IMG/VR virus record: IMGVR_UViG_3300017991_000007
Location: 32,001-96,000 of that record
Strand: one strand, 5' to 3'
DNA length: 64,000 nucleotides
Source of the DNA: a virus
Below are positions 6,655 to 42,291 of this stretch, one piece after another; position 1 is the stretch's first letter, and each line of letters begins with the position of its first letter. A program made the translations under genes and the position numbers. The notes below the pieces were generated by a model. The model saw only the letters and a program-made list of their open reading frames with translations, had not been told where the DNA came from and did no database searches.

Positions 6655-7194
6655 ATGGCAAAGAAAAAGCCGGTCAAATGGGAGCCTTTCAAAGAGGCAT
6701 ATTACCCGGATGATTTTCCGCTTGATGACGATAAGGTTTACAAGAATAATCAGTATCAGGTAGCAGCCAAGCTTTATCCCTCTCAAGGGGGTTTTCCTCA
6801 GTATGTGGGGCTTTCCATTAAGAAGCTGAATAAACACCCCGTACATGATTGGCGGGATTTGCAGCGTATAAAAAATGAGTTGTGCGGGATCAATTGTCAA
6901 GCTATTGAGATTTACCCGCCTGAGTCTGAGTTGGTGGATACTGCCAACCAATATCATCTTTGGGTATTCCCGCCGGGTATCTGCTTACCTATCGGATTTA
7001 GTGAGCGGCGTGTTTCGTGTGATCCTGAATTCCAAGAGCAATTAGAGCAAGATTGTGCTGGTATCGGGATTGATCCAAAGCAGTTGAATAAATCCAAGCA
7101 AAGAGAATTCAAAGAGCATCATAAATGCCGGACCTTGCCGGAAATCGGTAGGGTATGGCAGGATGTTGGCTATGAGGGGGTAGAGGATGATTGA
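6655..7194 (+). CDS. conserved phage hypothetical protein
   Basis: HDWRDLQRIKNEL...EIYP.ESELVD.ANQYHLW motif; ACGGGGGTAGCGA RBS. Confidence 0.75.
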   Translation: MAKKKPVKWEPFKEAYYPDDFPLDDDKVYKNNQYQVAAKLYPSQGGFPQYVGLSIKKLNKHPVHDWRDLQRIKNELCGINCQAIEIYPPESELVDTANQYHLWVFPPGICLPIGFSERRVSCDPEFQEQLEQDCAGIGIDPKQLNKSKQREFKEHHKCRTLPEIGRVWQDVGYEGVEDD

Positions 7195-7414
7195 TATCAC
7201 TAAGCCCGTTACCACGGCAAAAGGGCAGCGTGTTATCGGATTGCAGCGGGTACCATGCAACTCTGAGGGTAGAAAAGTAACCTACCCTTTGAAGGGTAGC
7301 GTTGTGGTTTGTGAAAAGCCTTTCAGGACTGAGTACAATGTTTGGACTGATAGCGGCGTGTGGGATGTAGTCTGGAATAGGCACCCGGAACTTAACTTGA
7401 TTCAAGGGGGTTGA
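7187..7414 (+). CDS. hypothetical protein
   Basis: GGGGTAGAGG RBS, overlap. Confidence 0.65.
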   Translation: MIDITKPVTTAKGQRVIGLQRVPCNSEGRKVTYPLKGSVVVCEKPFRTEYNVWTDSGVWDVVWNRHPELNLIQGG

Positions 7415-7416
7415 AA

Positions 7417-7671
7417 ATGGCCTTAGTGAGTAGAGAGGAAAAGGACGGCGTTCATATTGACGTGGTTTGTGATCATTGCGGTGCGGTCAATGATGCGGAT
7501 GTAACGCATGATATTGCCGGAAATTATTGCAGCAAACCGGAGTGTCAAAAAGTTTGGTGGAAAAACCGAAAAAAAGGTAAGGCATTTATGGGTAAGCTTT
7601 TGAAAACCACTATGAATTTCATTGAGGGAATGGATGATCTTGCTAAAGAATTTGAGGAAAGTAAGAAATGA
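7417..7671 (+). CDS. hypothetical Zn-binding protein
   Basis: CDHC...CSKPEC; GGGGG RBS. Confidence 0.6.
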   Translation: MALVSREEKDGVHIDVVCDHCGAVNDADVTHDIAGNYCSKPECQKVWWKNRKKGKAFMGKLLKTTMNFIEGMDDLAKEFEESKK

Positions 7672-7904
7672 CGGCGTTTACTTTTGTGGGAGTGTTGGCG
7701 GTTGGTTTCATCCTTGGGGTGATTTTAGGGCTTTCAATGGGGAGTCAAAAAAGAAAGCTACTTGAGGAATTGCAGGAAACTTATGAGGAAACGGTTGCCA
7801 AGCAAAAAGAGGCAATCAAGCATCAAGATTCTGCTATCGAAACTCAGAAAGAAGCTATTGAAAAGCTTATGCTGAGGCTCAAGGTAGATTATCCTTTTGT
7901 GTGA
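7668..7904 (+). CDS. membrane-anchored coiled-coil protein
   Basis: N-terminal hydrophobic helix followed by heptad-like tail. Confidence 0.65.
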   Translation: MTAFTFVGVLAVGFILGVILGLSMGSQKRKLLEELQETYEETVAKQKEAIKHQDSAIETQKEAIEKLMLRLKVDYPFV

Positions 7905-7912
7905 GGTAATAA

Positions 7913-8206
7913 ATGAAATTCCGGCTTGAACCTATGGACCTTTTTCCTCTGAATAATATCAGCGGGAAAATCCCTATGGACCTTTTAATTAAAGTTCATT
8001 GGGGTGGTATGTCCAAGTCAAGCTTTTCGCTTGAGTCTTTTATCAGGCAGTACACGCCGGATAAGGTTATCTCATTTTCGGATGCAACGGGTGTGGGGGA
8101 ACCTCTTGTAATGAGGCATTCACAGCTTATGGAAAAGCTTGAGATTGAGGGTATCTTAAAAAAGTGGGAGCGCATTCAGGATGAGCGGGAAAACCGAAAG
8201 CGATAA
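7913..8206 (+). CDS. hypothetical protein
   Basis: GAGGT RBS. Confidence 0.6.
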   Translation: MKFRLEPMDLFPLNNISGKIPMDLLIKVHWGGMSKSSFSLESFIRQYTPDKVISFSDATGVGEPLVMRHSQLMEKLEIEGILKKWERIQDERENRKR

Positions 8207-8477
8207 AATTTTTGAGCAATGGCGCACTAAGGTCTATGACCCCAATGAGGGTGGGTTTGTAACCATTAAGCATAGGGATAGGAAGTTCATAGGTACCCTT
8301 TCTTGCGGACCCGGCGGGGTGGGTATCTTTGAGCCTTATGAGCCGTTGCACGTCAATTTTAAGTATGAAATCAATGTGTCTGAGTTGGACCCTGCGGTAG
8401 TTAAGTCGATAAAAGAATTCAGGGCGGGGTGGGGTGCAAAGAAAGTTGAAATAGCTTTAGATGATGATGAGGATTAA
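8181..8477 (+). CDS. hypothetical protein
   Basis: operon packing. Confidence 0.6.
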   Translation: MSGKTESDKIFEQWRTKVYDPNEGGFVTIKHRDRKFIGTLSCGPGGVGIFEPYEPLHVNFKYEINVSELDPAVVKSIKEFRAGWGAKKVEIALDDDED

Positions 8478-8947
8478 TGGAGGCTCCTAAGCACATAAAA
8501 AGTATGAGGGAACTTGTAGATATTTTTGGGGATTTTTATCCGCAAACTACTTTGGAATTGCGTCACTCTGAAATGTTTTCCCCGGTTGGCAGACTCAAAA
8601 TGGGTAGTTGGTCTATTCCGGCTTATGATCCGGTTTCCAAGTACAATAGGACTGAGTACGTTGTGGTATTTACGGACTTTGGCGTTCAATACCGTGGGGA
8701 GCTTGACGTTGAAACTGGAATCATAACTATAGATAGTCATATCACGGGTGACGTGAAAAAGATTGTAACAATGGAGGTCGTAACCTGCGGGTATGCGCCC
8801 GGTGTGGACCCTGATAGACTCGAATACTTTGAGGAAAGGCGGTTGGCGAATTTACCCATTGGGGTACCGTCGCAGTCTTTCAATACACAACACAATGCTT
8901 GGTTTAGGATTCATAGTTTTAGAGAATTGAGGGATAGACCCCCTTAA
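8477..8947 (+). CDS. hypothetical protein
   Basis: TAATG coupling, GAGGA RBS. Confidence 0.65.
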   Translation: MEAPKHIKSMRELVDIFGDFYPQTTLELRHSEMFSPVGRLKMGSWSIPAYDPVSKYNRTEYVVVFTDFGVQYRGELDVETGIITIDSHITGDVKKIVTMEVVTCGYAPGVDPDRLEYFEERRLANLPIGVPSQSFNTQHNAWFRIHSFRELRDRPP

Positions 8948-8954
8948 AAAATAC

Positions 8955-8982
8955 TTGACAATCCAAATAAGCGGTGTATATT
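8955..8982 (+). promoter_or_regulatory. sigma70 promoter
   Basis: TTGACA-16-TATATT. Confidence 0.7.
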
Positions 8983-8989
8983 AACCAAC

Positions 8990-9483
8990 CATTACGGCGG
9001 CAAACCGTGACTCTGGATAGCGATTTGTTAGCTGTATTTGCTCAATTTTATTAGGAAAGGGGTGATTAAACGTGTCAAGATTTTGAAGTTCATTTTGATG
9101 AAAGTCTGCTTTTGGACGTAACTCACTGCGAAGTGGGGTACCCCTTGGTAGGGCAGCTTTTTGAATCTCTGGTTTTGTCTTGGCCCTTTATCCGTGATTT
9201 TGATTCACGGGGCAAGTCAGGGGAAAATCAGGCTAAAGAGTCTCTAAGCTTGTGATCTGCGGGGGAACGCTCCGGTAACTATACGGGAAAGAGCCTGAAC
9301 GAGCGAACAGGTCATTTCCTTAAACACCGTGCCGGGGTTTCAACGGAGTTGGCTGCAATCCTATCCAATGTGATCATAGGGCTGCGGTGTTTGGAGGCGG
9401 GTGACTTAGAACATGAAAGGATAGAACTTTGAATAGTTTTACGAGGTAGAGGCCGTTTCCATTGGGAGCGGCCTTTGCTTTTT
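8990..9483 (+). ncRNA. putative large structured ncRNA (~490 nt)
   Basis: Own promoter and terminator, no convincing ORF; long-range pairings (TTTGAAGTTC/GAACTTTGAA, AAGTC/GACTT, AAACACCGT/GCGGTGTTT); CTCACT-GCGA-AGTGGG GNRA hairpin. Confidence 0.65.
9449..9483 (+). terminator. intrinsic terminator
   Basis: GAGGCCGTTTCC-ATT-GGGAGCGGCCTT followed by T-rich tail. Confidence 0.75.
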
Positions 9484-9530
9484 GTGCTATGATGTAAAAA
9501 TGTTTCACATGAAACAATTGGAGCTACCCA

Positions 9531-10418
9531 ATGAGCAAAGGCGAAAACCAAACCAATATTACCATCCAAGGCAAGAGCTTCCAACACTACCTATTTTTTC
9601 CACTGTTAATCATAGCTTGCGCTGCTATCGCTATCGGAGTGTACCAATACTATGCCCACCAAAAAGACCTTGATGCGGCCTCAGTTGACGCAAAGAGCCT
9701 GAAAGACCTTGTGAAAAACCTCAAGAAAGCGAATGCGGGGTATGAGCAAGAGATAGATGCCCTTGCAAAACTGGCAACCGACCTCAGAGACAAGCTGGAA
9801 AACGCTGAGTCAGAGGTGCGGGTAGAGGTGCGGACTCGTACAATCCGAATTCCGGGGCAACCAACCGACCCCGTGCAACCGATTGCACTACCACCGTCTT
9901 GTGAGGACTGTCTGCCTCAAATCGAAATGCCCTATCACTTTGAAAATACTTATGTGACGCTGGATGACCTACTCAAATGGTCTGAGGATGACAAAACCTT
10001 TGTTTCGGATGAGGATTACCGCAAGTTCAAACTGAAACCGGAGTTTGATGCGCTGCTTTTGACCCAAGGCACTGAGAATATTGTGGAACAGGATGAGAAA
10101 ATTCTGAGGGCAAGGTGGATCATTGGTGTTGACGGGGGTATCCGTACTCTGAATGATGAGGATAAGCCCGGTGAATTGGGGGCTACTGAGGTTGGCATTA
10201 ATTCCGGGGTTGAATTCCTGAATTTTAAGAAGCTGATAAAGGCACCCTTGGGCATGGCAGCAACAGCCTCAGTCACGCCCGCCGATTGGGAGCAATCGCA
10301 CCTCTCTTTGGGGATGACCTACCGGCCTTTCAGGAATGTTGCCGTGTCTGTTGGCTATGGTCGGTCCATGCAATCCGATATGGCTCTTGTGGGGCTTGGT
10401 GTTTTTCCTATGAAGTAA
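9531..10418 (+). CDS. membrane-anchored coiled-coil protein with C-terminal beta-rich domain (spanin-like?)
   Basis: TM helix about aa 20-39, coiled coil, Pro-rich linker with CEDC, amphipathic beta strands at the C-terminus. Confidence 0.6.
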   Translation: MSKGENQTNITIQGKSFQHYLFFPLLIIACAAIAIGVYQYYAHQKDLDAASVDAKSLKDLVKNLKKANAGYEQEIDALAKLATDLRDKLENAESEVRVEVRTRTIRIPGQPTDPVQPIALPPSCEDCLPQIEMPYHFENTYVTLDDLLKWSEDDKTFVSDEDYRKFKLKPEFDALLLTQGTENIVEQDEKILRARWIIGVDGGIRTLNDEDKPGELGATEVGINSGVEFLNFKKLIKAPLGMAATASVTPADWEQSHLSLGMTYRPFRNVAVSVGYGRSMQSDMALVGLGVFPMK

Positions 10419-10444
10419 ATGAAAAGGTGTGTTATGATTTAGGT

Positions 10445-10530
10445 GGTACATTTTGGTTGCCGTTTTGCTATCTTTCCTTTCTGAAAGGCCGGTGTTGTCG
10501 CTACCCCCGTTGACACCGGCCTTTCCCTTT
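10445..10530 (+). ncRNA. putative anti-Shine-Dalgarno small RNA
   Basis: Extended -10 TG-T-TATGAT 10430-10438; stem AAAGGCCGGTGT/ACACCGGCCTTT; loop TCGCTACCCCCGT is the reverse complement of the phage RBS ACGGGGGTAGCGA. Confidence 0.55.
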
Positions 10531-10613: not shown

Positions 10614-11114
10614 ATGGCTTACGATGTAGAACTGATTAGGTCGGACGGTGAGGGAAGTCTAAACTTTAACGAGCTTGAGGCGAAAATCAAAGATTTCGTT
10701 GACGCTCTTTCGGTACCGGTGAAAGTGTCGGTTGGAGAGGGTGAGGATGGTCTGTTCGCCGTGATCGAATACGGTACCGACCTTGCCGGTGCGGGTCTTG
10801 TTGGTCCGGCGGGTCCGGCGGGTCCGGCGGGTGATCCAACCGTTCTTTACCCGGTGGAATTTGTCGGGTCCAACGGTGCGGGTCCATGCACCCCGGCCTC
10901 AAAATCGGATGAGGCAATCAACGTGGGTGACAAGCTGGTTCATATCGTTGGATATGTGACGGCTGCGGGTACCTTCGTTGCTACCCCCACATTGGCTGAG
11001 GCTATTGGTTCGGCTGATTTCGATTCGCTGATTACGGCGGGTCCGGTTGTTACGCAGAATAATGTAGCGAATTGGTCCACCAATACCTACATTGCGTTGG
11101 TTGCTCGTACCTAA
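10614..11114 (+). CDS. hypothetical protein with short collagen-like repeat (possible virion decoration)
   Basis: GPAGPAGPAG; strong RBS; downstream terminator. Confidence 0.65.
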   Translation: MAYDVELIRSDGEGSLNFNELEAKIKDFVDALSVPVKVSVGEGEDGLFAVIEYGTDLAGAGLVGPAGPAGPAGDPTVLYPVEFVGSNGAGPCTPASKSDEAINVGDKLVHIVGYVTAAGTFVATPTLAEAIGSADFDSLITAGPVVTQNNVANWSTNTYIALVART

Positions 11115-11167: not shown

Positions 11168-11340
11168 TAAGAGGGGGATAGGCATTTCAGCCTACCGTTT
11201 CCGCTTACTTGTATGAACGGCAATTCTCCAAAAGGTACCCGCCGGTACATCTTGGCCTCAGCGGTGTTTTTCAATAACCCGGTCCTAAAGTCGGTTGCCG
11301 CCAACCATTACCCCCGAATCACCTCAAACTACCCCTCTTA
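11168..11340 (-). ncRNA. putative structured ncRNA with T-loop-like arm and pseudoknot
   Basis: Terminal stem UAAGAGGGG/CCCCUCUUA; 3' arm UAGGC-UGAAAU-GCCUA; hairpin GUUGG-CGGCAA-CCGAC able to pair with downstream UUGCCG. Confidence 0.55.
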
Positions 11341-11350
11341 GCAAATCAAA

Positions 11351-11475
11351 GAAATAACGGCTTGCTCCCCGTGCCTACCGCCTGAATCAGCCCCAAAAAT
11401 CCTTTGCTGAAACTTCCCTATCGGGTACCTCTAGTTAAGCGGGTAAAAACCCCGAAACGCCCCTAGTCGTATTTC
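11351..11475 (-). ncRNA. possible structured ncRNA
   Basis: Ends pair (GAAAUACG/CGUUAUUUC); non-coding; lies between two other RNA-like units. Confidence 0.35.
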
Positions 11476-11483
11476 AAAAGTAA

Positions 11484-11580
11484 GGCGGGATGAGCCGGGG
11501 ATTCAAACCCCGTCGCCATTGTAGCGGCTTTACCATTCGTGATCATATCCGTTTGCAACCGGATACTCCCACCTCATCCC
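11484..11580 (-). ncRNA. tRNA-like RNA (non-canonical)
   Basis: 8-bp GGGAUGAG/CUCAUCCC plus GCC end; T arm CGGGG-UUUGAAU-CCCCG; hairpin UAUCCG-GUUGCAAA-CGGAUA; no normal D arm. Confidence 0.55.
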
Positions 11581-11744
11581 TACTCTCTTGAGAGGTCTTT
11601 TTTCATTTCCCTCTTGAATACCCTGCGGGTCTTACGGCGCAAGGCTTTCCGTTCTTTTCCGGGTGGGGGTCCGCAGCATGAACAATTCATCCCGCCGGGT
11701 CCAACCCATTTCCAAGAGGTTTTCTTGAATTCATCTATTGTCAT
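11580..11744 (-). CDS. small basic Cys-containing protein (54 aa, not in ORF track)
   Basis: MTIDEFKKTSWKWVGPGGMNCSCCGPPPGKERKALRRKTRR...; ATGA overlap; TAG stop. Confidence 0.6.
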   Translation of the reverse strand: MTIDEFKKTSWKWVGPGGMNCSCCGPPPGKERKALRRKTRRVFKREMKKDLSRE

Positions 11745-11973
11745 TTTCGCTCATTCCTTTCCCAAAAAAGATCATCCCACATTTCAACCGCCTCAGCTTT
11801 GGTGCGTCCTAACGGTCCCTCAGAGTCACAACTTATGCAAGCTACTCTGAAACCTACTATCATCGGAGCGCAACCGGCGGGTGGGCTTTCCTCCATTTCA
11901 GCCCAAAGCATACCGGAGCCGCCTAAGCACTCAAAGCACAACTCCTTTGGTTTTGGCTCATTTCGTACCCCAT
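11741..11973 (-). pseudogene. Lar-like (restriction alleviation) Zn-finger gene with out-of-frame start
   Basis: CFEC...VACISCDSEGP.GRTKAEAVEMW resembles Lar family; the ATG with AAGGAG RBS at 11973 is in a different frame. Confidence 0.45.
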
Positions 11974-12014
11974 TTTGAGGCTCCTTTCATGCAAACTGAT
12001 TATCAACTGACTGC

Positions 12015-12112
12015 ATCATAACAACGCTCTTTTGGTGTGTCAAGTAAAAAGTGCAATTGCTTGCATTTTTTCTTAAAAAATACTTGACACGGCTATTTAG
12101 GTGTGTTAGGGT
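12015..12112. promoter_or_regulatory. divergent sigma70 promoters flanking TGCAATTGCTTGCA
   Basis: Minus TTGACA-17-TATGAT; site 12052-12065; plus TTGACA(12084)-17-TAGGGT. Confidence 0.8.
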
Positions 12113-17952: not shown

Positions 17953-19932
17953 ATGGATAATGTGTTTCGATTGACTGAGGGATTCCTTGATAAGTACAAA
18001 GGCCGTCAACCAAATTGGGGGTACGGCGTTGTGGGGTGGGTGACGTACAAGCGCACCTATGCCCGGTTAAAACCGGACGGCAATTTAGAGGATTGGTGGG
18101 AAACGGTAAAGCGGGTAGTAGAGGGTTGCTACAATGTTCAAAAGCTTCATTGTGAGGCACACCGCTTACCGTGGAATGGTAACAAGGGGCAGCTATCAGC
18201 CCAAAAGATGTATGACTTGATCTTTAATATGAAATTTCTACCGCCGGGTAGAGGGCTTTGGGCAATGGGTACTGAGTATGTTTCGGAGCGTGGCAGTGCG
18301 GCTTTGAATAATTGTGGATTTGTCAGTACCAAGGATATCAAGAGGGACTTTGCCCGTCCTTTCTGTTTTCTTATGGATATGAGTATGCTTGGAGTGGGGG
18401 TGGGAGCGGATACCAAAGGGGCCGGTACTTTCACCTTGACGCAACCGGATTACGATGATGAGCCTTATATCATTCCAGACTCAAGAGAGGGTTGGGTTGA
18501 TTCGCTCAAGGCTATTTTGGATGCGTTTTCCGGGCGTGGTAGGTTGCCCGCCAAATTCGATTACTCCCAAATCAGACCGCAGGGCGCAACTCTCAGGGGG
18601 TTTGGGGGTAAAGCCTCTGGACCCGGACCTTTGAAGCTACTCCATAAAGACGTGATCCGAATGCTGCATAAGCAAGTGTATGAAAAGAATGGAGAGGTAA
18701 CGTCAACTGTTATCGTAGATATTTTCAACATGGCAGGGCGTTGTGTTGTAGCGGGTGGTATTCGTAGGTCCGCTGAAATCATGCTTGGGGATTCTGAGGA
18801 TGCTGATTTTCTGGACTTGAAAAACCCTGCTAAGTGGAAAAAGGAGTTGAATTCGCATAGGTGGGCATCCAATAACTCAGTGTTCGCTGAGGTTGGCATG
18901 GACTATGAGCCTTTTGTGGATCAAATCATGGAAAACGGGGAGCCGGGTTTCGTTTGGTTGGATAATGCCCGGAATTATGGACGGATGATTGATGGATTCA
19001 ATGAGGATGCGGACCCGTTTGTAATGGGATGTAACCCGTGCGGCGAACAGTCGCTTGAATCTTATGAGCTTTGCAATCTGGTAGAGACTTTTCCGGCATT
19101 CCACGAATCTTATGAGGAATTTCAGTTTACACTGAAATATGCGTACCTATACGCAAAGACCGTATCCCTGATTCCCACGCATGATCCCAACGCAAATGCG
19201 ATTATCGGACGTAACCGGCGCATTGGCACGTCCGTATCCGGTATCACTCAGGCAATTCAGAGGTTTGGTTTTCGGAGTTTTATTCAAATGCTTGATAAGG
19301 GCTACCAATATCTGCGGCAACTGGACAATATTTATGCCCGCTGGTTATGTGTGCCAAACTCAATCAAACTAACATCCGTGAAACCATCCGGTACCATTTC
19401 CCTCTTGACGGGTGCGACCCCCGGTATCCATTTCCCCGAATCTGAATACTACATAAGAAACATCCGGTTTGATCCCGGCTCCCCGCTTTTGGAGCGGCTT
19501 GAGGCTGCGGGCTACCCGGTAGAACCATCCATTCAGAAAGATAATACATTAGTAGTGAGCTTTCCCGTCCGGCAAGAGCTTTTCAGCAAATCTAAGTATG
19601 ACGTGACGGTTTGGGAACAATTTGAGCTTGCCAGCCAGATACAGAAGCATTGGAGCGATAATCAGGTATCGGTCACTATCACGGTGCAAGAGGGAGAGGC
19701 GCAAGATGTTCCACGCTGCCTTTCGATGTACGAGAGTAGGCTGAAATCGGTATCAATGCTGCCTTTAGGGGAGCATGGTTATAAGCAAGCCCCGTATATT
19801 CCAATTACCAAGGCTGAGTATGATAAGATGATGAGAAAGTTAAAACCTTTGGACTTCAATGTGTCCGAGAAAGAGTGCCATGACCAAGAAGATAAATTCT
19901 GCGATTCAGAAAGCTGCGAAATCAAAACCTAA
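17953..19932 (+). CDS. nrdJ: class II adenosylcobalamin-dependent ribonucleoside-triphosphate reductase (monomeric type)
   Basis: PPGRGLW, ALNNC, RRSAE, NPCGEQ.LE..ELCNL.E, VKPSGT, C-terminal CDSESC. Confidence 0.93.
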   Translation: MDNVFRLTEGFLDKYKGRQPNWGYGVVGWVTYKRTYARLKPDGNLEDWWETVKRVVEGCYNVQKLHCEAHRLPWNGNKGQLSAQKMYDLIFNMKFLPPGRGLWAMGTEYVSERGSAALNNCGFVSTKDIKRDFARPFCFLMDMSMLGVGVGADTKGAGTFTLTQPDYDDEPYIIPDSREGWVDSLKAILDAFSGRGRLPAKFDYSQIRPQGATLRGFGGKASGPGPLKLLHKDVIRMLHKQVYEKNGEVTSTVIVDIFNMAGRCVVAGGIRRSAEIMLGDSEDADFLDLKNPAKWKKELNSHRWASNNSVFAEVGMDYEPFVDQIMENGEPGFVWLDNARNYGRMIDGFNEDADPFVMGCNPCGEQSLESYELCNLVETFPAFHESYEEFQFTLKYAYLYAKTVSLIPTHDPNANAIIGRNRRIGTSVSGITQAIQRFGFRSFIQMLDKGYQYLRQLDNIYARWLCVPNSIKLTSVKPSGTISLLTGATPGIHFPESEYYIRNIRFDPGSPLLERLEAAGYPVEPSIQKDNTLVVSFPVRQELFSKSKYDVTVWEQFELASQIQKHWSDNQVSVTITVQEGEAQDVPRCLSMYESRLKSVSMLPLGEHGYKQAPYIPITKAEYDKMMRKLKPLDFNVSEKECHDQEDKFCDSESCEIKT

Positions 19933-20104
19933 GTTCGTACCAAGGGAACGGTTGCGTTCCTGTAGGAAGTGTGGGAGCATATTTCGTAGTGATGACCATT
20001 ATTTGTGTCGTAATTGTCGGGGTAAAGAGGCGAAAAAGCATACCCCGAAAAAGAAGTTTGATAATGAGAGTATGATTGTCCGTCTGCAAGGGGGTCCGAA
20101 ATGA
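19880..20104 (+). CDS. small basic Zn-finger protein
   Basis: CRKC...CRNC; ATGA overlap with portal. Confidence 0.55.
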   Translation: MTKKINSAIQKAAKSKPKFVPRERLRSCRKCGSIFRSDDHYLCRNCRGKEAKKHTPKKKFDNESMIVRLQGGPK

Positions 20105-21942
20105 GTAAGGGTAAGAAGTCCACAAAGAAAAAAGGTGTGGAAGGGCAGCGTACCAGACCGCCGGTAGAGGAATACATTATGGAGAAAGTAGTTGACTCTC
20201 AAGAGGTCGTAGTCAAGGTCTTTGGCGGCGGCGGTATTGACGGTCATTCTCAAATTGGAAAGATGGAAAGATTTGGAGCAAGGTCTAAGCAGCTTCCCCC
20301 GGATCATTTTGAGCAAGATATCCGAGCCGGAAATGTTATTGCTCCCCTTTATGATCCTGCGGTTTGGGCTTTCCTCTTAGAGCAAAATACAAGGCTAAAT
20401 AAGCTTGTCAACTCAATGGCGTGTAACACCGTTGGTTTGGGTTGGAAAATCGTACCGGTTAAAGAGGATGAGACTTATATTGAACAAAACAAGAAAGAGA
20501 TTGAGGCAGAAAAGGAACTGTTGATCCCCCTTTTCCAGCATCCTAATCCAGAGGTTCCCTTTACCGAGCTTATGAAAATGGTCAAGGTTGATGAGGAAAG
20601 CACGGGGCAGGGTTGGATGGAGGTTATCAGAAATCTCAAGGGTGACAAGGTTGCAAATATGAATCATTTGCCGTCCTACACCATGCGGGTTGCTAAAGGT
20701 GGGGATAGGTTTGTTCAAATGCGTCCCTCTGATACTTCCAAGAAAGTGTATTTCAAGCCTTTCGGAGTAGAGAGGAAATTGGATTCTTTAACCGGAGAGT
20801 GGGAGAAACCGGGTCAACCGATACCGGCTGATAGAGAGGCTAATGAAGTTCTTTACTGGAAAATTTACAACCCACGCTCATCTTTTTATGGTGCGCCAAG
20901 AGTTGTATCCGCAGCACCGGCTGTTGCTGGTACACGCCTTGCCCACAAACGAAACGTGGCATTCTTTGAAAACGATGCGACCCCACGCCTTGCGATTATC
21001 GTAAATGGAGGGCAGCTTTCGGATGAATCAATGAAAATGATTGAGGATTTTGTTGATGCCCGTGGAAAAGGACCGGGTAATGCTGGTAGATTGATGGTTT
21101 TGCAAGCACGGGGAGCCGATTCAATGCTTGCGGATGCGAGTCAACTCAATATTAACCTTATGCCGCTTACCGTGGGAGTCCAAGATGATGCCAGCTTTAG
21201 CCGGTACCTCACTCAGAATAATGAGGAAGTACGAGAGGCATTTGGTATTGGACAAATTTTCATTGGTACCTCAGACGATGTAAACCGAGCGGTTGCTTTG
21301 GCGATGAAACAATTGACTGTAGAGCAAGTTTTTGAGCCTGAATCACGGCGTTATGAGTATCGAATCAATGAAACAATCGTAAAGACTTTCAATGTCAAAC
21401 ACGTCCGGCTCAAATTTATCAGACCCCGGACTACCGATATGCAAGCTGAGTCTCAAGCATACTCTATGCTTGCTGCGGTTGGCGGCGTAACTCCCAATGA
21501 CGTGCGTGATTTCCTTGAGAAACCGAGATTTGAGGGCAAGTGGGCAAATACTCCGCTTTCGGTCCTGCGTTCTGGAATGATGGAAATTCAGGATAACCCG
21601 GATGCTACTATGTGGACTGAGTATGGTGACAAAATTCCTCAGCAAGAGTTGGTTGATGCTCAAGCCGATAAAGTCCGCATGGAGGTTGGTATGGCAGGGG
21701 CGCAAGCTACGACCCCACAAAAGATGCCAACTGAGGGTGCTACGATAACCCCGCCGGGTATTATGGACCGTGATAAGATCAAAGAAGCGGTTAGAGCAAC
21801 CCCGGAAAACCGGGAAGCGGCCAAAGAAGCATTGAAAGAGTTTCCCGCTGAGAGTATCCAAGAATCTATAGATGAAATGCAAGCGATTGCACAAGGTCTT
21901 AGGGATATGGGATTCAATGTGGAAGTCACTTTACCTGAGTAA
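20101..21942 (+). CDS. portal protein (PBSX/P2-like)
   Basis: EVIRN..G, HLPSYTMR, FYGAP, FFENDATP, GGVTPNDVR; position upstream of head genes. Confidence 0.9.
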   Translation: MSKGKKSTKKKGVEGQRTRPPVEEYIMEKVVDSQEVVVKVFGGGGIDGHSQIGKMERFGARSKQLPPDHFEQDIRAGNVIAPLYDPAVWAFLLEQNTRLNKLVNSMACNTVGLGWKIVPVKEDETYIEQNKKEIEAEKELLIPLFQHPNPEVPFTELMKMVKVDEESTGQGWMEVIRNLKGDKVANMNHLPSYTMRVAKGGDRFVQMRPSDTSKKVYFKPFGVERKLDSLTGEWEKPGQPIPADREANEVLYWKIYNPRSSFYGAPRVVSAAPAVAGTRLAHKRNVAFFENDATPRLAIIVNGGQLSDESMKMIEDFVDARGKGPGNAGRLMVLQARGADSMLADASQLNINLMPLTVGVQDDASFSRYLTQNNEEVREAFGIGQIFIGTSDDVNRAVALAMKQLTVEQVFEPESRRYEYRINETIVKTFNVKHVRLKFIRPRTTDMQAESQAYSMLAAVGGVTPNDVRDFLEKPRFEGKWANTPLSVLRSGMMEIQDNPDATMWTEYGDKIPQQELVDAQADKVRMEVGMAGAQATTPQKMPTEGATITPPGIMDRDKIKEAVRATPENREAAKEALKEFPAESIQESIDEMQAIAQGLRDMGFNVEVTLPE

Positions 21943-31934: not shown

Positions 31935-32123
31935 ATGGCTGATAAATACACGCTTGTAAAAACTTGTGATGGTGATCATGCAGACCATACCCCGCCGGGT
32001 GTGTGGGCAGTGAGTGAGCAAACCGTTGATTCTGAGGGTGAGCTTAATATGGACTATGCTTGTCCAGAACATCCCGGCTCTAATTTAGGGCTACCTATCA
32101 TTGTTCAAAAGGAACCTGCGTAA
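31935..32123 (+). CDS. small hypothetical protein
   Basis: GGGGT RBS. Confidence 0.55.
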   Translation: MADKYTLVKTCDGDHADHTPPGVWAVSEQTVDSEGELNMDYACPEHPGSNLGLPIIVQKEPA

Positions 32124-34629: not shown

Positions 34630-35006
34630 ATTACAAACTTAAAAACGGCGGTCTGTACGGTAAGCAAGAGATTTCCGTCAATGTTTTGGATGGCGGTTTG
34701 AAAGTAGTCCGTACCATCAATCTTGCTCCGTATGGTTCTGAGTTGATTTCTGAGTCTGAGGCAGAATCCCACGAAATTGCCAAGCTTGTTAGGGCAGGAC
34801 GGCTGCAACTGAAAAAGGATGTACCCGTTAAAGGTCTTTCCGGCTCTATCGGCAAGTTCAAAGCCTCTAAGAAAAAGGCGGCTCCGAAAGAATCGGCTGC
34901 GGTCAAGGCTCCGAAAAAGACGGTCACTAAGAAAATCGTGAAACCCGCAAAAGAGGCGAAACAAGGCGAAACCAAGCAGCCTGATTCCCCTAAAGATAAA
35001 GAGTAA
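34626..35006 (+). CDS. hypothetical protein with Lys-rich tail
   Basis: ATGA overlap. Confidence 0.6.
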   Translation: MNYKLKNGGLYGKQEISVNVLDGGLKVVRTINLAPYGSELISESEAESHEIAKLVRAGRLQLKKDVPVKGLSGSIGKFKASKKKAAPKESAAVKAPKKTVTKKIVKPAKEAKQGETKQPDSPKDKE

Positions 35007-35017
35007 GGAGATAAGGA

Positions 35018-37789
35018 ATGGAAGCATTTGCACCCGGCGTTGAAGTCCTCGAAAAAGAGGCGTTGGCTGTAATTGAGGCTGCGGGAACGTCTTTTTCTGG
35101 TATGGTTTGCCAAGCAGAGAGAGGCCCGGATAACGTAGTCACATTCTTGTCCAACTTTGATCAATACAAGCGGCGTTACGGCGGCTATGGAGGTTTTCTT
35201 GGCTACCCAATGGCTGAGGATTACTTTGACCAAGAGGGTGCCGGGTTGTATTTCATCCGTGCTGTTGGTGAGGGAGCCGCACAAGCCAATTTCAATTCCT
35301 TTATCTCTGCAAGGTCTTTGGAATATAGTGAATCAATTAGCGGTATGACCCTTGTATCAGGGGAGCCGGTTGTGATCCAGTTTTCCAGTGACATTCCAGA
35401 CGGTATTCTGAAAGACGGGGATCAAGTTTGGTTGCAGGATATTTCCGGCGGTGACTCTGAGGATTTGAATGACAACTATTGGACCGTTACCCGTGATCCT
35501 GACAATGACGATACCATTTCTTTGGATGGTACCGATAGTGACGATTACACCGGTTACACAAGCGGCGGTGACGGTTTCTTTGGCATTCCCGCTGGTAACT
35601 TCCTTGCCTCAAGTGTGGGGCAGTGGGGTAACAACACTCTCATTACTACAAATAAATGGGTTGCGAATCCCGCTACCGGTTGGAAAAACATTGTACCTTT
35701 GGCAATCAAGGATATTGACATTTCCGGCGGGGCTGGAAATCCGGTTATTCTGGAATTCAATGACGATCTTGAGATTCCTCAGTCCTTTGAGAAAGTCAAT
35801 ATGTGGTTGACGGGGCAGGGCGCATTGACAGGTACGCCGGACCTCAGAGGTAAGTGGGAAGCTAAGTTGATTCCGGGTGAGCCTACTAAGGTGGAATTGG
35901 ACGGAACGGATGCCGGTAATTATGCGGGCGGTCCTTACGTTGCTGATAGCGAATCAGCTACCCACCCCACTAGCACACTTTCGTTTGATGGACTTCCCCC
36001 GCAGCTTGAGCTTGGGGATGGTTTCTATCTCTTTCAGAATGCTACCGCTACACGCACAGGCTTTGGTTTTATCCTTGATATCGACGTTGCCACTCAGAAA
36101 GCTACCATCTTTGGTGATTGGGAGTCTTGGGATGACGTTTCCGCTATTGATATCTCAGCCGGTGCGGGCAATGAGGTAGAGGTCACTTTTTCAGGGGATC
36201 ACGACCTAAGAACGGGTGACTATATCTATCTCTCAGGCAGTGCGGGCATTGTAGATTCGGGGCCGGGAACTACTGATTTGGCCGGTAAGTATCAGGTTGG
36301 ACGTGTGAGTGACACCATTGTAGTGCTTGCTGATACGGATCAAGGCGATTGGACCGGGGCTTATACCGGCGGTGACGTTGCGTTTAATCCTTACTTCGAT
36401 GACACCTCTAGTATTTATTGCAATACCACTCACAAGTCCAAGACTGTAACCACTGAATTCTACAATGGTGGGACTACTTTGAAAGTCGCTTCCAATGCCG
36501 GAATCAGTAAGGGTGCGCTTCTTTTCTTTTGGGATCAACTTACCGGTGCTATCGGTCAGGTAAAAGTCAACTCTATTAATGGGAGCATTCTGAATGTCAC
36601 GTTGAATTTCTCTAACGACATTTTTGATGCGCTTGGAGTTCCGGCTGACACCAATATTGTCTCCATGAATTTCAACGTCTTGCATAATGTTGACGGGGAA
36701 ACGACAATCTTTGAGTTCTTGAATCTTGAATCTGATTGTCCGGCTGATTATATCGTAGATAGGTTGGCTGAGAGTGAATTCCTGCGATTTGACCCGAATG
36801 ATGCTTTCGCTATACCGCCGGGTATCCCCACAAGCTTATTCTTTCCGGGTGCCTACGATATCGAACAGAACATGATTCGTGGGTTGGACGGCTCGGCTGC
36901 AACGAATCAGGATTATTTGGGTACCAACACCTCGAAACTCTACACCCACGGAATGCAGCTTTTTGATTCGGTTGGTGTGCTTCCCCAATTCGCTATTCCG
37001 GGGCAGGGTGTGACCGTTCAAAAGGGAGCGGATACTTATGCTAAGAGTAGAGAGGATACCGTGTTTATCGGTGACGTGCCTTTGGCTGAGGATACCCTTG
37101 AGGAAGTCCTGAATTATCGCAACGTGACGCTGAATATACAGTCCAGTTATTCCACCTTGACTTTCCCTTGGTTGAAAAAGCAAGACCCGGATACCGCTGA
37201 GGCTGAGATTATCACTCCCCCGTCTGCAAAGGCTTTGGGCGTAATGTCCTACACCTCTCAGACACGGGGTACGCAGAAACCGCCCGCAAATGAGCAAATC
37301 AACAATATCATTGACGTGAATACCGTTGTTACCAAGCAGGAACACGGATTTATGAATGCTGCGGGCATCAACGTCATTACCAATGAGCCGGGGCGTGGTA
37401 TTCGTCTTATGGGAGCTAGGACGCTTTGGGGCGTTGCAGACCGTAAGCAGTACCTTAATGTGCGTCGGATTCTGAATGCGGTGAAAATCGGTCTGAAAGA
37501 GTTTGGGGAAACCATCGTCTTTGAGGCCAATGATGACTTGCTTTGGAAAGATATTCAGGCGCAAGGAACCAAGTACCTTGAGACTCTTTGGAAACTCGGT
37601 TGGTTCTATCCCCGCCTTGATCCGACCCAAGCATTTTTCTTTAGGTGCGATTCAACCACGAACAGAGAAGATTTGCGGTTAGCTGGAAAGGTCCGTTCCG
37701 TTGTCGGTATCAATCCGGTGCTACCCGGCGAACTTATCATTTTTGAGGTTACGCTTTGGGACGGCGGCGCAATCGTAACCGAAATATAA
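35018..37789 (+). CDS. tail sheath protein with inserted repeat domains
   Basis: APGVEV.E, AERGP, KPPANE, GIRLMGARTL, YLNVRR, VFEAND. Confidence 0.92.
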   Translation: MEAFAPGVEVLEKEALAVIEAAGTSFSGMVCQAERGPDNVVTFLSNFDQYKRRYGGYGGFLGYPMAEDYFDQEGAGLYFIRAVGEGAAQANFNSFISARSLEYSESISGMTLVSGEPVVIQFSSDIPDGILKDGDQVWLQDISGGDSEDLNDNYWTVTRDPDNDDTISLDGTDSDDYTGYTSGGDGFFGIPAGNFLASSVGQWGNNTLITTNKWVANPATGWKNIVPLAIKDIDISGGAGNPVILEFNDDLEIPQSFEKVNMWLTGQGALTGTPDLRGKWEAKLIPGEPTKVELDGTDAGNYAGGPYVADSESATHPTSTLSFDGLPPQLELGDGFYLFQNATATRTGFGFILDIDVATQKATIFGDWESWDDVSAIDISAGAGNEVEVTFSGDHDLRTGDYIYLSGSAGIVDSGPGTTDLAGKYQVGRVSDTIVVLADTDQGDWTGAYTGGDVAFNPYFDDTSSIYCNTTHKSKTVTTEFYNGGTTLKVASNAGISKGALLFFWDQLTGAIGQVKVNSINGSILNVTLNFSNDIFDALGVPADTNIVSMNFNVLHNVDGETTIFEFLNLESDCPADYIVDRLAESEFLRFDPNDAFAIPPGIPTSLFFPGAYDIEQNMIRGLDGSAATNQDYLGTNTSKLYTHGMQLFDSVGVLPQFAIPGQGVTVQKGADTYAKSREDTVFIGDVPLAEDTLEEVLNYRNVTLNIQSSYSTLTFPWLKKQDPDTAEAEIITPPSAKALGVMSYTSQTRGTQKPPANEQINNIIDVNTVVTKQEHGFMNAAGINVITNEPGRGIRLMGARTLWGVADRKQYLNVRRILNAVKIGLKEFGETIVFEANDDLLWKDIQAQGTKYLETLWKLGWFYPRLDPTQAFFFRCDSTTNREDLRLAGKVRSVVGINPVLPGELIIFEVTLWDGGAIVTEI

Positions 37790-37800
37790 GGAGTTAAGCA

Positions 37801-38277
37801 ATGGCAGACGGGCAAAGGCTTGATCCATACCGTGCTTACAATTTCCGGGTACTTGTTGGCTCCAAGGTGAGTGCGGAAATTGCTTTTTCCAAAGTTACGG
37901 GTCTTGAGGCTGAGGTTGACCAAACGGAATACCGAGAGGGAACCGACACCGCAACTCTCCGTAAGCTCCCCGGACTCGTAAAGTACCCGAATATCGTACT
38001 TGAGCGTGGTATTACCGATTCCCCGGAATTGGTGCAATGGTTTCAGGAAATCGTCAAACTCACTGAGGAAGCTGCCCTACCAAGGGATGATGCTTTCAGG
38101 ACTGATATGACAATCCAGTTGCTTAACCGCAACCTTGAGATTGTTCGTGAATGGGTTGCAACCGCCGCTTGGCCTTGCAAAATGTCCGTTGGTGACTTCG
38201 ATGCTGGAAGCAGTGACGTTGTAATCGAACAGATGGAGATTTGCCACGAAGGGCTATCTCTTGTCAGTTTCGCATAA
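37801..38277 (+). CDS. tail tube protein (T4 gp19/Afp1-like)
   Basis: DPYRAYNFRV, F.KVTGL, EYREG, KLPG..KY.NI.LERG, AWP.K. Confidence 0.92.
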   Translation: MADGQRLDPYRAYNFRVLVGSKVSAEIAFSKVTGLEAEVDQTEYREGTDTATLRKLPGLVKYPNIVLERGITDSPELVQWFQEIVKLTEEAALPRDDAFRTDMTIQLLNRNLEIVREWVATAAWPCKMSVGDFDAGSSDVVIEQMEICHEGLSLVSFA

Positions 38278-39417: not shown

Positions 39418-42291
39418 ATGAGCGTTATCCCTCTTGGACTCCAACTCTCAGCCGAAGTTCGCAATATGAGCAAGCTTCAATTGGCTAATAGGGAGTTGGA
39501 ACGCACCATTCACAATCAAGAAATGCTGAATAAGCAAGCCAAGCTTAATTCTCGTTATATGGATGAGAATACCCGCCGGTTAGAACAAGCCCGCCTCCAA
39601 CGTATGAATAACAATTACCAAATGAGGGCTGCGGCTCAAGACCAAGCTGAGGTAACTGCCCGTATGCAAGCTGCGGGTCGTACAATGACGGCTGTAGGGG
39701 CTGGTATGACCGCTGCGGGGGCTGCGGGTGCATTCTTTATGAAACGGGCAGTGGGGGAGTCCGTAAAGCTTGAGGGTGCTATGAACGGTATCCGCATTGT
39801 GTCTGGAATGTCGGATGAGTCTCTTGGGAAGCTGAATAAGAACTTTAAGGAAATGTCCATTCGGTTGCCGGGTACGGCGGTTGATATGGCTAGGGCTGCG
39901 GACGTTGCGGCTCGTATGGGTGTCCGGGGTGTAGAGGAATTATCGGGTGTGACTGAGAATGCCGTTGGACTCGCTGTAGCGTCCGGTATGCAGACGAAAA
40001 CGGCGGCTGAGGGGTTGGGGTCGGTATTCATGGCTTTCCGGCGTGGGAAGTCGTTTATTGATCCTACAACCGGTGCAATGATGAGCATGAAGGATGCTAC
40101 GGCAAGTATTTCCTCAGCGTTGATGGAAATGACCTTTAGTACGCCGGGTACGGCTCAAGAGTTGATCAATGTGACCAAACGTAGTGCGGCTGCGGCGGGG
40201 CAATTCGGAGTCACGGCTGCGGAATCTCTTGCTCTTGCGGGCGCACTTGCCGATTTGAAGCTACCCCCTGAAATGGCCGGGTCTGCCATGCTGAAATTTT
40301 ATCAGAACATGGCGAACAAAGGCCCGGAAATGATGAAAATTGCCGGTATCAATGAGGCGGCTTGGAAAAAGATGACTCCGATAGAACGTATTAAGGGCGT
40401 TTTGAAAGGAGTCAATGAGTTGGGGGCGGCTGAGAAAGCCGGTACTGCTAAGACCGGTACCCTACAAAAAGCTATCAGTATGATGGGTATGAAGGGTATC
40501 CGTACCTCAGTGGTTATGAGTGCTTTGCAAGCTGCAATGGGAAAAGCTCTTGATCCTAAGTTAGCTGCAAAAGGTGTGACACGTCTTGATGCGTTGCTTG
40601 GAAAAGCCACAAAAGCGGCTCAAGAGGCTACTAAAGCAAAAGAGACAATGGAGAAAAGGCTGAAATCGGTTGGTCAACAAATGGCACAGCTTAGTGCTAT
40701 GGTCAACATGGTTATGATTTCCCTTGGTGACGCTCTTTTGCCGGTGATTACGGCGGTAGTGGGAGTTTTGCGTAAGCTCGTAAACTGGTTCAATAGCCTC
40801 TCTGAAAGAACAAAGAACATCATAGGTCTGGTTATCGCTTTGGGGTCTGCCTTTTTACTCTTATTAGGTGGTCTGCTTTTGGTCGGTGGCGCAATAACAA
40901 TGATGTTGCCGGGTATCATGGTGTTTATAGAGTCAGCATTCATGGCTACCATTGCGGCTGAGGGGTGGGCGGGTGCTTTAGGTGTGCTTTATGCTGAGGC
41001 ACTTGCTCCAATTCTGGCAATCTTGGCTCCTATTGGTATTGCTATTCTTGCCGTTGCCGCTGCGGTTGGTACGCTCTATGCTCTTTTCAGGCTTGGAGTT
41101 TTTGATAATTTCTTAAACAAATTGGGAGAATGGAAAAAGACACTTGGGGCGGTCAAACAAGCAACGGCTGATGCTACCAAAATGACGCAGGAACAGTTCG
41201 ATCTTATGGACAAGTGGGATATGTGGGATGTTGCTGCGGGTATGGAGGCGGCTCAAAAAACTAGCACGGCTTTTTGGGATTCATTCGGTAGAGGTTGGCA
41301 AGAGGGTTTGGAGGGTGGTACCTCTTTTAAGATTCTGGTTGAAACTATCGGTATGTATTTATCCGAAACTTTTGAGCCTATTTGGGCTGCTATTGCTGAT
41401 TTATTAAATGAGATTTTTGGTGAAATGGATAGCGGGATGAATAAAGCGATTGAGGATGGTTATGCTTTTGGCTACATACTCTCTCAAATTAAGTACGTTC
41501 TTTTGGCTTTGATTCCGGTAATCAAGATAGTCTTAGGTCCGATTGCTTCCATGATTAAAACCGCAATTAATGCTGTAAGATTGTTCGTGATAGCCATTAA
41601 AAGCATTGCTACTTTTGTAGAGGGTGTGGGTAAAACGATTGCCGGTCTTTTGGTTGGTATGTTGTATGGAGATTGGGGCGGCTTTTTTGATGGTTTGAAA
41701 CAAATGGCATATAGTTTTTTCATGTTTTTTGATGCCATTATAGACTCTATTGCAGTTGCGGTATCCGATGGTGTTAGGGGTATGTTAGAGTTGGTGGATG
41801 CTGTATTACCAACGAGTTTGACGGCGATTTTTGATAAAATCATTGATAGGATTGCTGGTTGGTGGAATACCCTTAGAAATAAGATAAAAGAGTGGGCCGG
41901 TATCGACGTTGGTACTGAGGCAACTGTTGGAGCCGGGGCGCAAACCGGAGCCGGTGCTACAAAGAGGGCTGAGGCTGCGGGTGGATTAGTAGCCAAACAA
42001 AATGCAAAAGAGGCTGAGAAAGCAAGGAAAAGCACTAAGGCTAAAAAGGATGTTGCCACGAAAAAGCCCCCAAGACGAACTACCCCACCAACCCCGGCTG
42101 AAAGAGAGGGTGCGGGGATGATGACCGCAGCCGAGCTTGCCGCTACCTTGACCGGAGCATTCCCGAAAAAACTTGAGTCTCAAACGAATGTAAAGTTGGT
42201 TATGGGTGAATTACAGTTTGGTGAAGCGGTTGCGAAAGTGAGTAAGAATTTGAATAGTCGATTGGGGCAAGGAACTGCCCCAAGTTCTTGA
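39418..42291 (+). CDS. tape measure protein
   Basis: TP901-like core, Ala/Gly-rich, hydrophobic middle. Confidence 0.9.
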   Translation: MSVIPLGLQLSAEVRNMSKLQLANRELERTIHNQEMLNKQAKLNSRYMDENTRRLEQARLQRMNNNYQMRAAAQDQAEVTARMQAAGRTMTAVGAGMTAAGAAGAFFMKRAVGESVKLEGAMNGIRIVSGMSDESLGKLNKNFKEMSIRLPGTAVDMARAADVAARMGVRGVEELSGVTENAVGLAVASGMQTKTAAEGLGSVFMAFRRGKSFIDPTTGAMMSMKDATASISSALMEMTFSTPGTAQELINVTKRSAAAAGQFGVTAAESLALAGALADLKLPPEMAGSAMLKFYQNMANKGPEMMKIAGINEAAWKKMTPIERIKGVLKGVNELGAAEKAGTAKTGTLQKAISMMGMKGIRTSVVMSALQAAMGKALDPKLAAKGVTRLDALLGKATKAAQEATKAKETMEKRLKSVGQQMAQLSAMVNMVMISLGDALLPVITAVVGVLRKLVNWFNSLSERTKNIIGLVIALGSAFLLLLGGLLLVGGAITMMLPGIMVFIESAFMATIAAEGWAGALGVLYAEALAPILAILAPIGIAILAVAAAVGTLYALFRLGVFDNFLNKLGEWKKTLGAVKQATADATKMTQEQFDLMDKWDMWDVAAGMEAAQKTSTAFWDSFGRGWQEGLEGGTSFKILVETIGMYLSETFEPIWAAIADLLNEIFGEMDSGMNKAIEDGYAFGYILSQIKYVLLALIPVIKIVLGPIASMIKTAINAVRLFVIAIKSIATFVEGVGKTIAGLLVGMLYGDWGGFFDGLKQMAYSFFMFFDAIIDSIAVAVSDGVRGMLELVDAVLPTSLTAIFDKIIDRIAGWWNTLRNKIKEWAGIDVGTEATVGAGAQTGAGATKRAEAAGGLVAKQNAKEAEKARKSTKAKKDVATKKPPRRTTPPTPAEREGAGMMTAAELAATLTGAFPKKLESQTNVKLVMGELQFGEAVAKVSKNLNSRLGQGTAPSS

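Follow-up and report, generated by a model that had tools for sequence, protein, structure and literature searches.

The widest gap of the analysed window, 583 nt between two genes (8948-9530), is proposed to carry a moron-like cassette, orphan and early, whose product would be a non-coding RNA that probably works by base pairing; we favour this reading tentatively, at somewhat less than an even chance. The window (64 kb) runs from base 32001 to base 96000 of an IMG/VR virus record that is 106,648 bp long and carries direct terminal repeats. It comes from an uncultivated, contractile-tailed phage whose portal is no more than 29% identical to that of any cultured phage, and its genes are tightly packed and nearly all on the + strand (Table 1). 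Within the early/accessory part of the phage genome, the unit would form an autonomous transcription cassette in which the host sigma70 RNA polymerase starts at an unregulated near-consensus promoter (8955-8982) and stops at a strong intrinsic terminator (9451-9483). Its product would be an RNA of ~495 nt that yields no conserved protein and most plausibly acts in trans as a base-pairing regulator, the best candidate target being the late mRNA of the tail tube via an 18-nt duplex. The reading draws on the quality of the promoter and its membership in a set, a terminator with z = -7.2, the lack of an ORF under three genetic codes, a promoter-to-gene distance of 550 nt that contains this terminator, the downstream gene's own -10 and palindrome, the lack of a protein relative of the longest frame, the 18-nt antisense match and the precedent of phage transcripts of 236-800 nt. 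Weighing against it are the lack of homologues, folding at background level, an 18-nt segment that is mostly self-paired, an excess of exact repeats in the genome, and two candidate small ORFs (19 and 36 aa).

Table 1. Positions of the features discussed, in window coordinates.
Feature	Position	Strand	Details
tRNA, CUA anticodon	3732-3805	+	amber suppressor type; ARAGORN label Pyl
sigma70-type promoter	8943-8982	+	A-tract/UP-like element; -35 TTGACA 8955-8960; 16-nt spacer; -10 TATATT 8977-8982
Predicted primary transcript	~8990-9483	+	~495 nt; ends placed from promoter and terminator
5' domain of the MFE fold	9009-9242	+	multi-helix arm closed by helix 9009-9014/9237-9242; helix probabilities 0.8-1.0
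Candidate 19-codon ORF	9053-9121	+	SD AGGA 9053-9056; GTG 9062; stop TAA 9119-9121
6-bp hairpin, GCGA (GNRA-type) tetraloop	9122-9137	+	pair probability 0.98
Antisense segment	9142-9159	+	CCCUUGGUAGGGCAGCUU; 18/18 nt complementary to + strand 38069-38086
Candidate 36-aa ORF	9145-9255	+	TTG 9145; GGGGTAC 4 nt before
22-bp long interrupted hairpin	9169-9231	+	most robust internal element; pair probabilities 0.98-1.0
3' domain, long irregular hairpin	9309-9407	+	probabilities 0.5-0.8; z = -2.63; contains the 9322/9390 helix
Intrinsic terminator	9451-9483	+	stem 9451-9460/9464-9473: GGCCGUUUCC / AUU / GGGAGCGGCC; tail UUUGCUUUUU
Extended -10 TGcTATGAT	9485-9493	+	in the terminator tail, outside the RNA
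Palindrome AAATGTTTCA-CA-TGAAACAATT	9498-9507/9510-9519	+	unique in genome; over likely start site of gene 9531
Class II RNR gene	17953-19932
Portal gene	20101-21942
Sheath gene	35018-37789
Tail-tube gene	37801-38277	+	phrog_4542, E = 3e-26
Candidate target site	38069-38086	+	within the tail-tube ORF, codons 90-96
Tape measure gene	39418-42291

The promoter matches the sigma70 consensus at 11 of 12 positions. Sites of this level number 16 in the genome, against ~1.4 expected by chance (our estimate for a uniform base composition), and most of them have an A/T tract before and a gene after them; low-stringency promoter matches around the unit are no more frequent than chance, and the - strand holds no promoter-like site in 8000-10500. 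The 18 nt that cover the A-tract and the -35 (8943-8960) are an exact copy of 12072-12089 upstream of gene 12156, and because of this identity with the promoter module of that gene, the promoter of the unit belongs to the phage's own set. Its distance from the next gene sets it apart, since all other strong promoters lie 20-60 nt from a gene start, whereas this one lies ~550 nt away with a terminator in between. Several strong promoters also carry a TGCA-N6-TGCA box that ends 8 nt before the -35 (genome positions 669, 2952, 49183, 90362 and others); the promoter of the unit has no such box and therefore probably lies outside that regulon. We infer that the unit is transcribed and that transcription starts near 8989-8991.

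At the 3' end of the unit, the terminator folds with -27.8 kcal/mol (z = -7.2, pair probability 0.97) and its stem can be extended to 9443-9481; a simple terminator scanner overlooked it. The sequence-only reading had described a dedicated sigma70 promoter and terminator bracketing an ORF-poor stretch in an otherwise densely coding genome, and this description was confirmed by the 11/12 promoter, the terminator z-score, the lack of an ORF of at least 50 aa and the rank of 8948-9530 as the largest gap in the window. The predicted transcript has a GC skew of +0.2, as have the adjoining + strand genes. There is no terminator between gene 8477-8947 and the promoter, so that transcripts from upstream would likewise stop at 9483.

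The gene that follows (9531-10418) has promoter-like signals of its own. The extended -10 in the terminator tail and the palindrome behind it, which looks like a private operator, suggest that this gene has its own regulated promoter, and with these two elements a leader function of the unit is not required. The gene product is an orphan of 295 aa in which a transmembrane segment at the N terminus is combined with a coiled coil. It shows weak Rz-like i-spanin matches (E = 5e-4), and its C-terminal part of ~190 aa is of no recognised kind. The terminator 3' arm and U-tail (9471-9484) are complementary to the start region of gene 9531 (9529-9542), with 12 Watson-Crick pairs and one G-U pair in 14 positions; pairing of the arm with the gene start was rejected because the terminator stem, which is much more stable, keeps the arm occupied.

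An alternative built on this arrangement is a cis-acting leader after the lambda PR'-6S-tR' model, in which transcription would stop at 9483 and regulated antitermination would turn on gene 9531 and the genes beyond. The lambda PR'-tR' RNAs of the 6S/StxS type are 74-194 nt long. They resemble the predicted layout of the unit in combining a constitutive promoter, an untranslated RNA and an intrinsic terminator upstream of lysis-type genes, and the membrane/coiled-coil protein with its weak Rz-like matches would fit the last of these; moreover, a terminated PR' transcript can be a regulatory RNA, as StxS is in trans (PMC7547250). The lambda RNA depends on Q and qut, however, and no Q homologue was found here: searched at E <= 0.1, the complete genome contains neither of the Q-type antiterminator families PF06530 and PF03589. 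Nor did the predicted fold show a convincing antiterminator that could replace the 18-bp terminator stem, and the genes that come next are RNR and dCTP deaminase, the structural genes starting 10 kb further on. With the extended -10 and the operator-like palindrome of gene 9531 added to these, we consider a cis-acting leader improbable.

No + strand ORF of at least 50 aa is present in 8948-9530 under table 11 or with TAG read as Gln, and reading TGA as Trp gives no credible ORF in the same interval, as four recoded stops would be needed. The phage does encode a tRNA with a CUA anticodon; despite this tRNA, TAG is the terminal codon of 9 of 65 genes, i.e. a normal stop, and no late gene appears to be interrupted by TAG under table 11. 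A gene hidden by a recoded stop was rejected on these grounds. The longest + frame (9070-9429, frame 1) spans 120 codons with one TGA, and its translation has no credible relative among 1.84 billion protein representatives. Its lone match, a 1,527-aa protein with 13 FN3 repeats (E = 1.5e-6), was judged spurious because the score sums near-identical alignments of ~25 bits, the query has no Pfam match and no other FN3 protein scored; a pseudogene of a known protein was rejected with it. A six-frame scan of viral contigs found no relative either. In codon usage, the open frames score between true coding frames and the genes' off-frames, as for non-coding DNA, and the five open frames of ~60 codons on the two strands, against ~2.8 expected (our estimate), are at about chance level. 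Paralogy with the phage's ORFs, including an inverted tube-gene copy, was also rejected, the 18-mer described below being all that was found.

The open frame 1 with its single TGA could be taken as a sign that the stretch has no function of its own, being either a decayed moron that kept its promoter and terminator after losing its gene or a long 3' spacer before the terminator of the upstream operon (6655-8947). The ending of upstream transcripts at 9483 would agree with this, and the only syntenic relatives lack the region, whose folding is unexceptional. Such a reading is harder to reconcile with a promoter that is intact and near consensus, with a frame-1 translation that has no real homologue and with ~60-codon open frames that occur at about chance frequency on both strands; in addition, the rest of the genome is tightly packed and this gap is the largest in 64 kb. 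A functionless stretch is in our judgement unlikely, if still a reading to be reckoned with.

The two small ORFs lead to a further alternative, in which the unit would be an mRNA for one or more very small proteins (candidates are the 19-aa and the 36-aa ORF) whose translation is controlled by RNA structure. The SD of the 19-codon ORF is well spaced, AGGA standing 5 nt upstream of GTG 9062, and AGGAAAG is also used by gene 3021; in the predicted fold, this SD and the start pair with 9139-9146. Translationally silent toxin mRNAs likewise have their SD sequestered in a helix. The GGGGTAC before TTG 9145 resembles the ribosome-site tag of the phage, GGGGGTAGC, but genuine tags read GGGGTAG and then ATG, and GGGGTAC sites elsewhere are mostly non-starts. 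The 19-aa peptide has five basic residues along its length (+5) and is neither transmembrane nor amphipathic, its hydrophobic moment (muH 0.165) lying below the shuffle mean; the codon score of its ORF is indeterminate. The intermediate codon scores of the region, the lack of protein relatives and the lack of an antisense promoter on the - strand also speak against translation, and we regard a small-protein mRNA as an unlikely, though not negligible, explanation.

Toxin-antitoxin systems were considered as well. A type I system was rejected on the five basic residues and low hydrophobic moment of the 19-aa peptide and on the lack of a - strand promoter in 8000-10500. Type III systems are recognised by tandem direct repeats of ~36 nt upstream of a ToxN-type gene. 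The interval 8900-9600 contains no tandem repeats, its only two direct-repeat pairs being 487 and 520 nt apart and at chance level, and the downstream protein has no ToxN-like family match; a ToxI-like RNA was rejected accordingly.

The whole unit folds with -172 kcal/mol, and its z-score is -3.3 on the + strand versus -0.44 on the - strand, in agreement with the + strand preference that had been read from the sequence. Much of this signal is the terminator, without which (8988-9442) z is -1.8; 24 other 455-nt windows on the same strand have a mean of -0.97 (sd 1.45, minimum -4.0), and the folding stability of the unit lies within the genome background. The sub-domain 9005-9246, in which the centroid equals the MFE structure, reaches z = -3.59, below all 107 fixed-grid windows of 242 nt (mean -0.76, sd 1.17), but its boundaries were picked after folding: a boundary shift of 25 nt leaves z at only -0.5 to -2.0, and two of seven random loci under the same 13-offset scan reach z <= -4. 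The earlier claim of extensive nested structure above chance thus finds no support in thermodynamic controls, which place the region within the background of the genome.

Local elements fare better. The long interrupted hairpin (9166-9234) folds with -28.2 kcal/mol and z = -4.0, equalled by none of 200 shuffles, and the GCGA tetraloop hairpin, which had been pointed out before, recurs as a confident element of the ensemble (9118-9141, z = -2.95, equalled by 3 of 200 shuffles). Three long-range helices had also been put forward. The one at 9322-9330/9384-9392 is part of the MFE fold, whereas those at 9081-9090/9425-9434 (10 bp) and 9102-9106/9403-9407 (5 bp) are real complementarities with an ensemble probability of ~0.02. 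A fold in which both are enforced is 3.7 kcal/mol worse than the MFE, and with alternatives this near several global folds compete within 4 kcal/mol. The predicted RNA would carry a few stable local hairpins, not one large ornate fold.

No RNA family can be assigned to the unit at the gathering score or at E <= 10. At the gathering score, Rfam recognises only the tRNA in the whole window, and at E <= 10 it gives only noise, such as snoRNA and miRNA models, in 8800-9650. Searches for relatives were equally negative: blastn against 50,697 phage records found no homologue of the unit, neither flanking protein has relatives among 5.8 billion protein clusters or in IMG/VR, and blastn and nhmmer found nothing similar in 2.6 Mb of IMG/VR and JGI metagenome loci anchored on portal or RNR, where the nearest metagenome RNR anchor has 57% identity. 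Exact-word scans with five 16-22-mers through viral, metagenome and GTDB genome contigs gave two chance matches only. The sole syntenic relatives, G001 and G002 (RNR 64%, portal 56% and major virion protein 64% identity), have the late module in common with the phage, together with dCTP deaminase and a single small gene, and differ in the early region; the region of the unit is not present in them, and covariance models built from its two best hairpin domains match nothing there. As no homologue was found anywhere searched, no class can be defined and selection on the RNA cannot be demonstrated.

GOLLD (RF01998) and ROOL (RF03087) are large ORF-less RNAs of phages and prophages (PMC5737381; bioRxiv 10.1101/2024.12.08.627333), and the unit might be thought to found a class of its own, with RNAs similarly large and intricate in fold. 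Its size of ~495 nt, the difference in folding between the strands, the GNRA hairpin and the very stable 22-bp hairpin would suit such a class. The unit differs from GOLLD (about 800 nt) and ROOL, however, in having no match to their covariance models at E <= 10, no family from which covariation could be read and folding not above background, with competing global folds less than 4 kcal/mol apart. A tRNA-adjacent setting, which is frequent for these two RNAs, was not borne out either, the sole tRNA of the window being 5.2 kb upstream with many genes between, and the suggestion of a new class found no second member in any collection searched; we see very little chance of such a class.

The antisense segment of the unit is an exact complement of 18 nt within the tail-tube gene, with a BLAST E-value of 6.6e-4 and ~1e-3 under a uniform model. 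The 18-bp duplex (-36.6 kcal/mol) would outweigh the costs of opening the two sites (12.5 and 8.8 kcal/mol) by about 15 kcal/mol. Two cautions apply. One is that ~85% of the segment is paired within the RNA's own fold. The other is that distant exact repeats of 18-19 nt outside promoters number ~4 in the genome versus ~0.2 expected (our estimate, uniform model); given this excess, the empirical chance for one of them to fall in this region of 496 nt is a few percent and not 1e-3. Examples of such repeats are found at window positions 34871/65065 (19 nt), 14627/26581 (18 nt) and -14793/14770 (18 nt). The match may mark an antisense target, or it may be just another of these short exact repeats. 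It is quite doubtful that an early, unregulated RNA silences or times the tail-tube mRNA by the 18-bp duplex, or else is the first sampled member of a new family of large structured phage RNAs whose other members are still to be sequenced. Pairing of the tube mRNA to unmask the SD of the 19-aa ORF was rejected, since blocking the 18 nt leaves this SD paired in the ensemble.

Other roles for the locus were rejected on local features. A replication origin or primer RNA was dismissed as iterons are absent and the cumulative GC skew has no inflection; GC skew is negative (-0.2 to -0.33) at window positions 11200-12000 in an otherwise positive-skew genome, which fits leftward transcription there. 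Insertion of a mobile element that duplicated a 9-bp target (8913/9433) was dismissed because the repeat is at chance level (~0.9 such 9-bp repeat pairs expected, our estimate) and terminal inverted repeats are absent. Further downstream, a tandem 9-nt repeat, GGTCCGGCG, occupies 10803-10832 in the GC-rich part of gene 10614-11114, which suggests a Gly-Pro-Ala repeat segment in its product.

Among known systems, morons are promoter-gene-terminator cassettes inserted between phage genes (a concept of Hendrix and Juhala), and classically they are protein-coding. Like them, the unit has its own sigma70 promoter and terminator, is set between two unrelated genes where the genome is variable, and does not occur in relatives; the payload of a moron is a protein gene, whereas that of the unit has no ORF. 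Phage transcripts without ORFs are known from the jumbo phage PA5oct, whose ncRNA001-004 (236-619 nt) are orphan transcripts defined by RNA-seq (Lood et al. 2020, PMC7318152); they have no known promoters, and their similarity is confined to near-identical isolates. These RNAs share with the unit that they are phage-encoded, a few hundred nt long, without a plausible ORF and without outside similarity; they differ in being actively transcribed and defined by RNA-seq, while the unit is defined by sequence signals only, and no sequence relationship connects them. ICP1 makes an abundant non-coding transcript of ~800 nt adjoining its lysis cluster (PMC7567579). It likewise comes from an ORF-less gap of a myovirus of the ~100-kb class, beside a lysis-type gene and not beside tRNAs, but it is larger, its transcription is proven, and it has no homology to the unit, whose spanin neighbour is weakly assigned. 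The likeness of the unit to the PA5oct and ICP1 transcripts is a matter of functional analogy, not homology.

An orphan phage ncRNA cassette is thus a plausible, unproven identity for the unit. Its main present value is negative: the reading of an ornate structure does not hold up against controls matched to the genome, and a class is without support. Should the RNA be made and have a function, it would be one more orphan ORF-less phage transcript in a growing list, and the 18-nt tail-tube match gives it an unusually concrete, testable target hypothesis for an RNA of this kind. The antisense reading, if true, would make the unit a trans-encoded brake on one of the phage's own structural genes.
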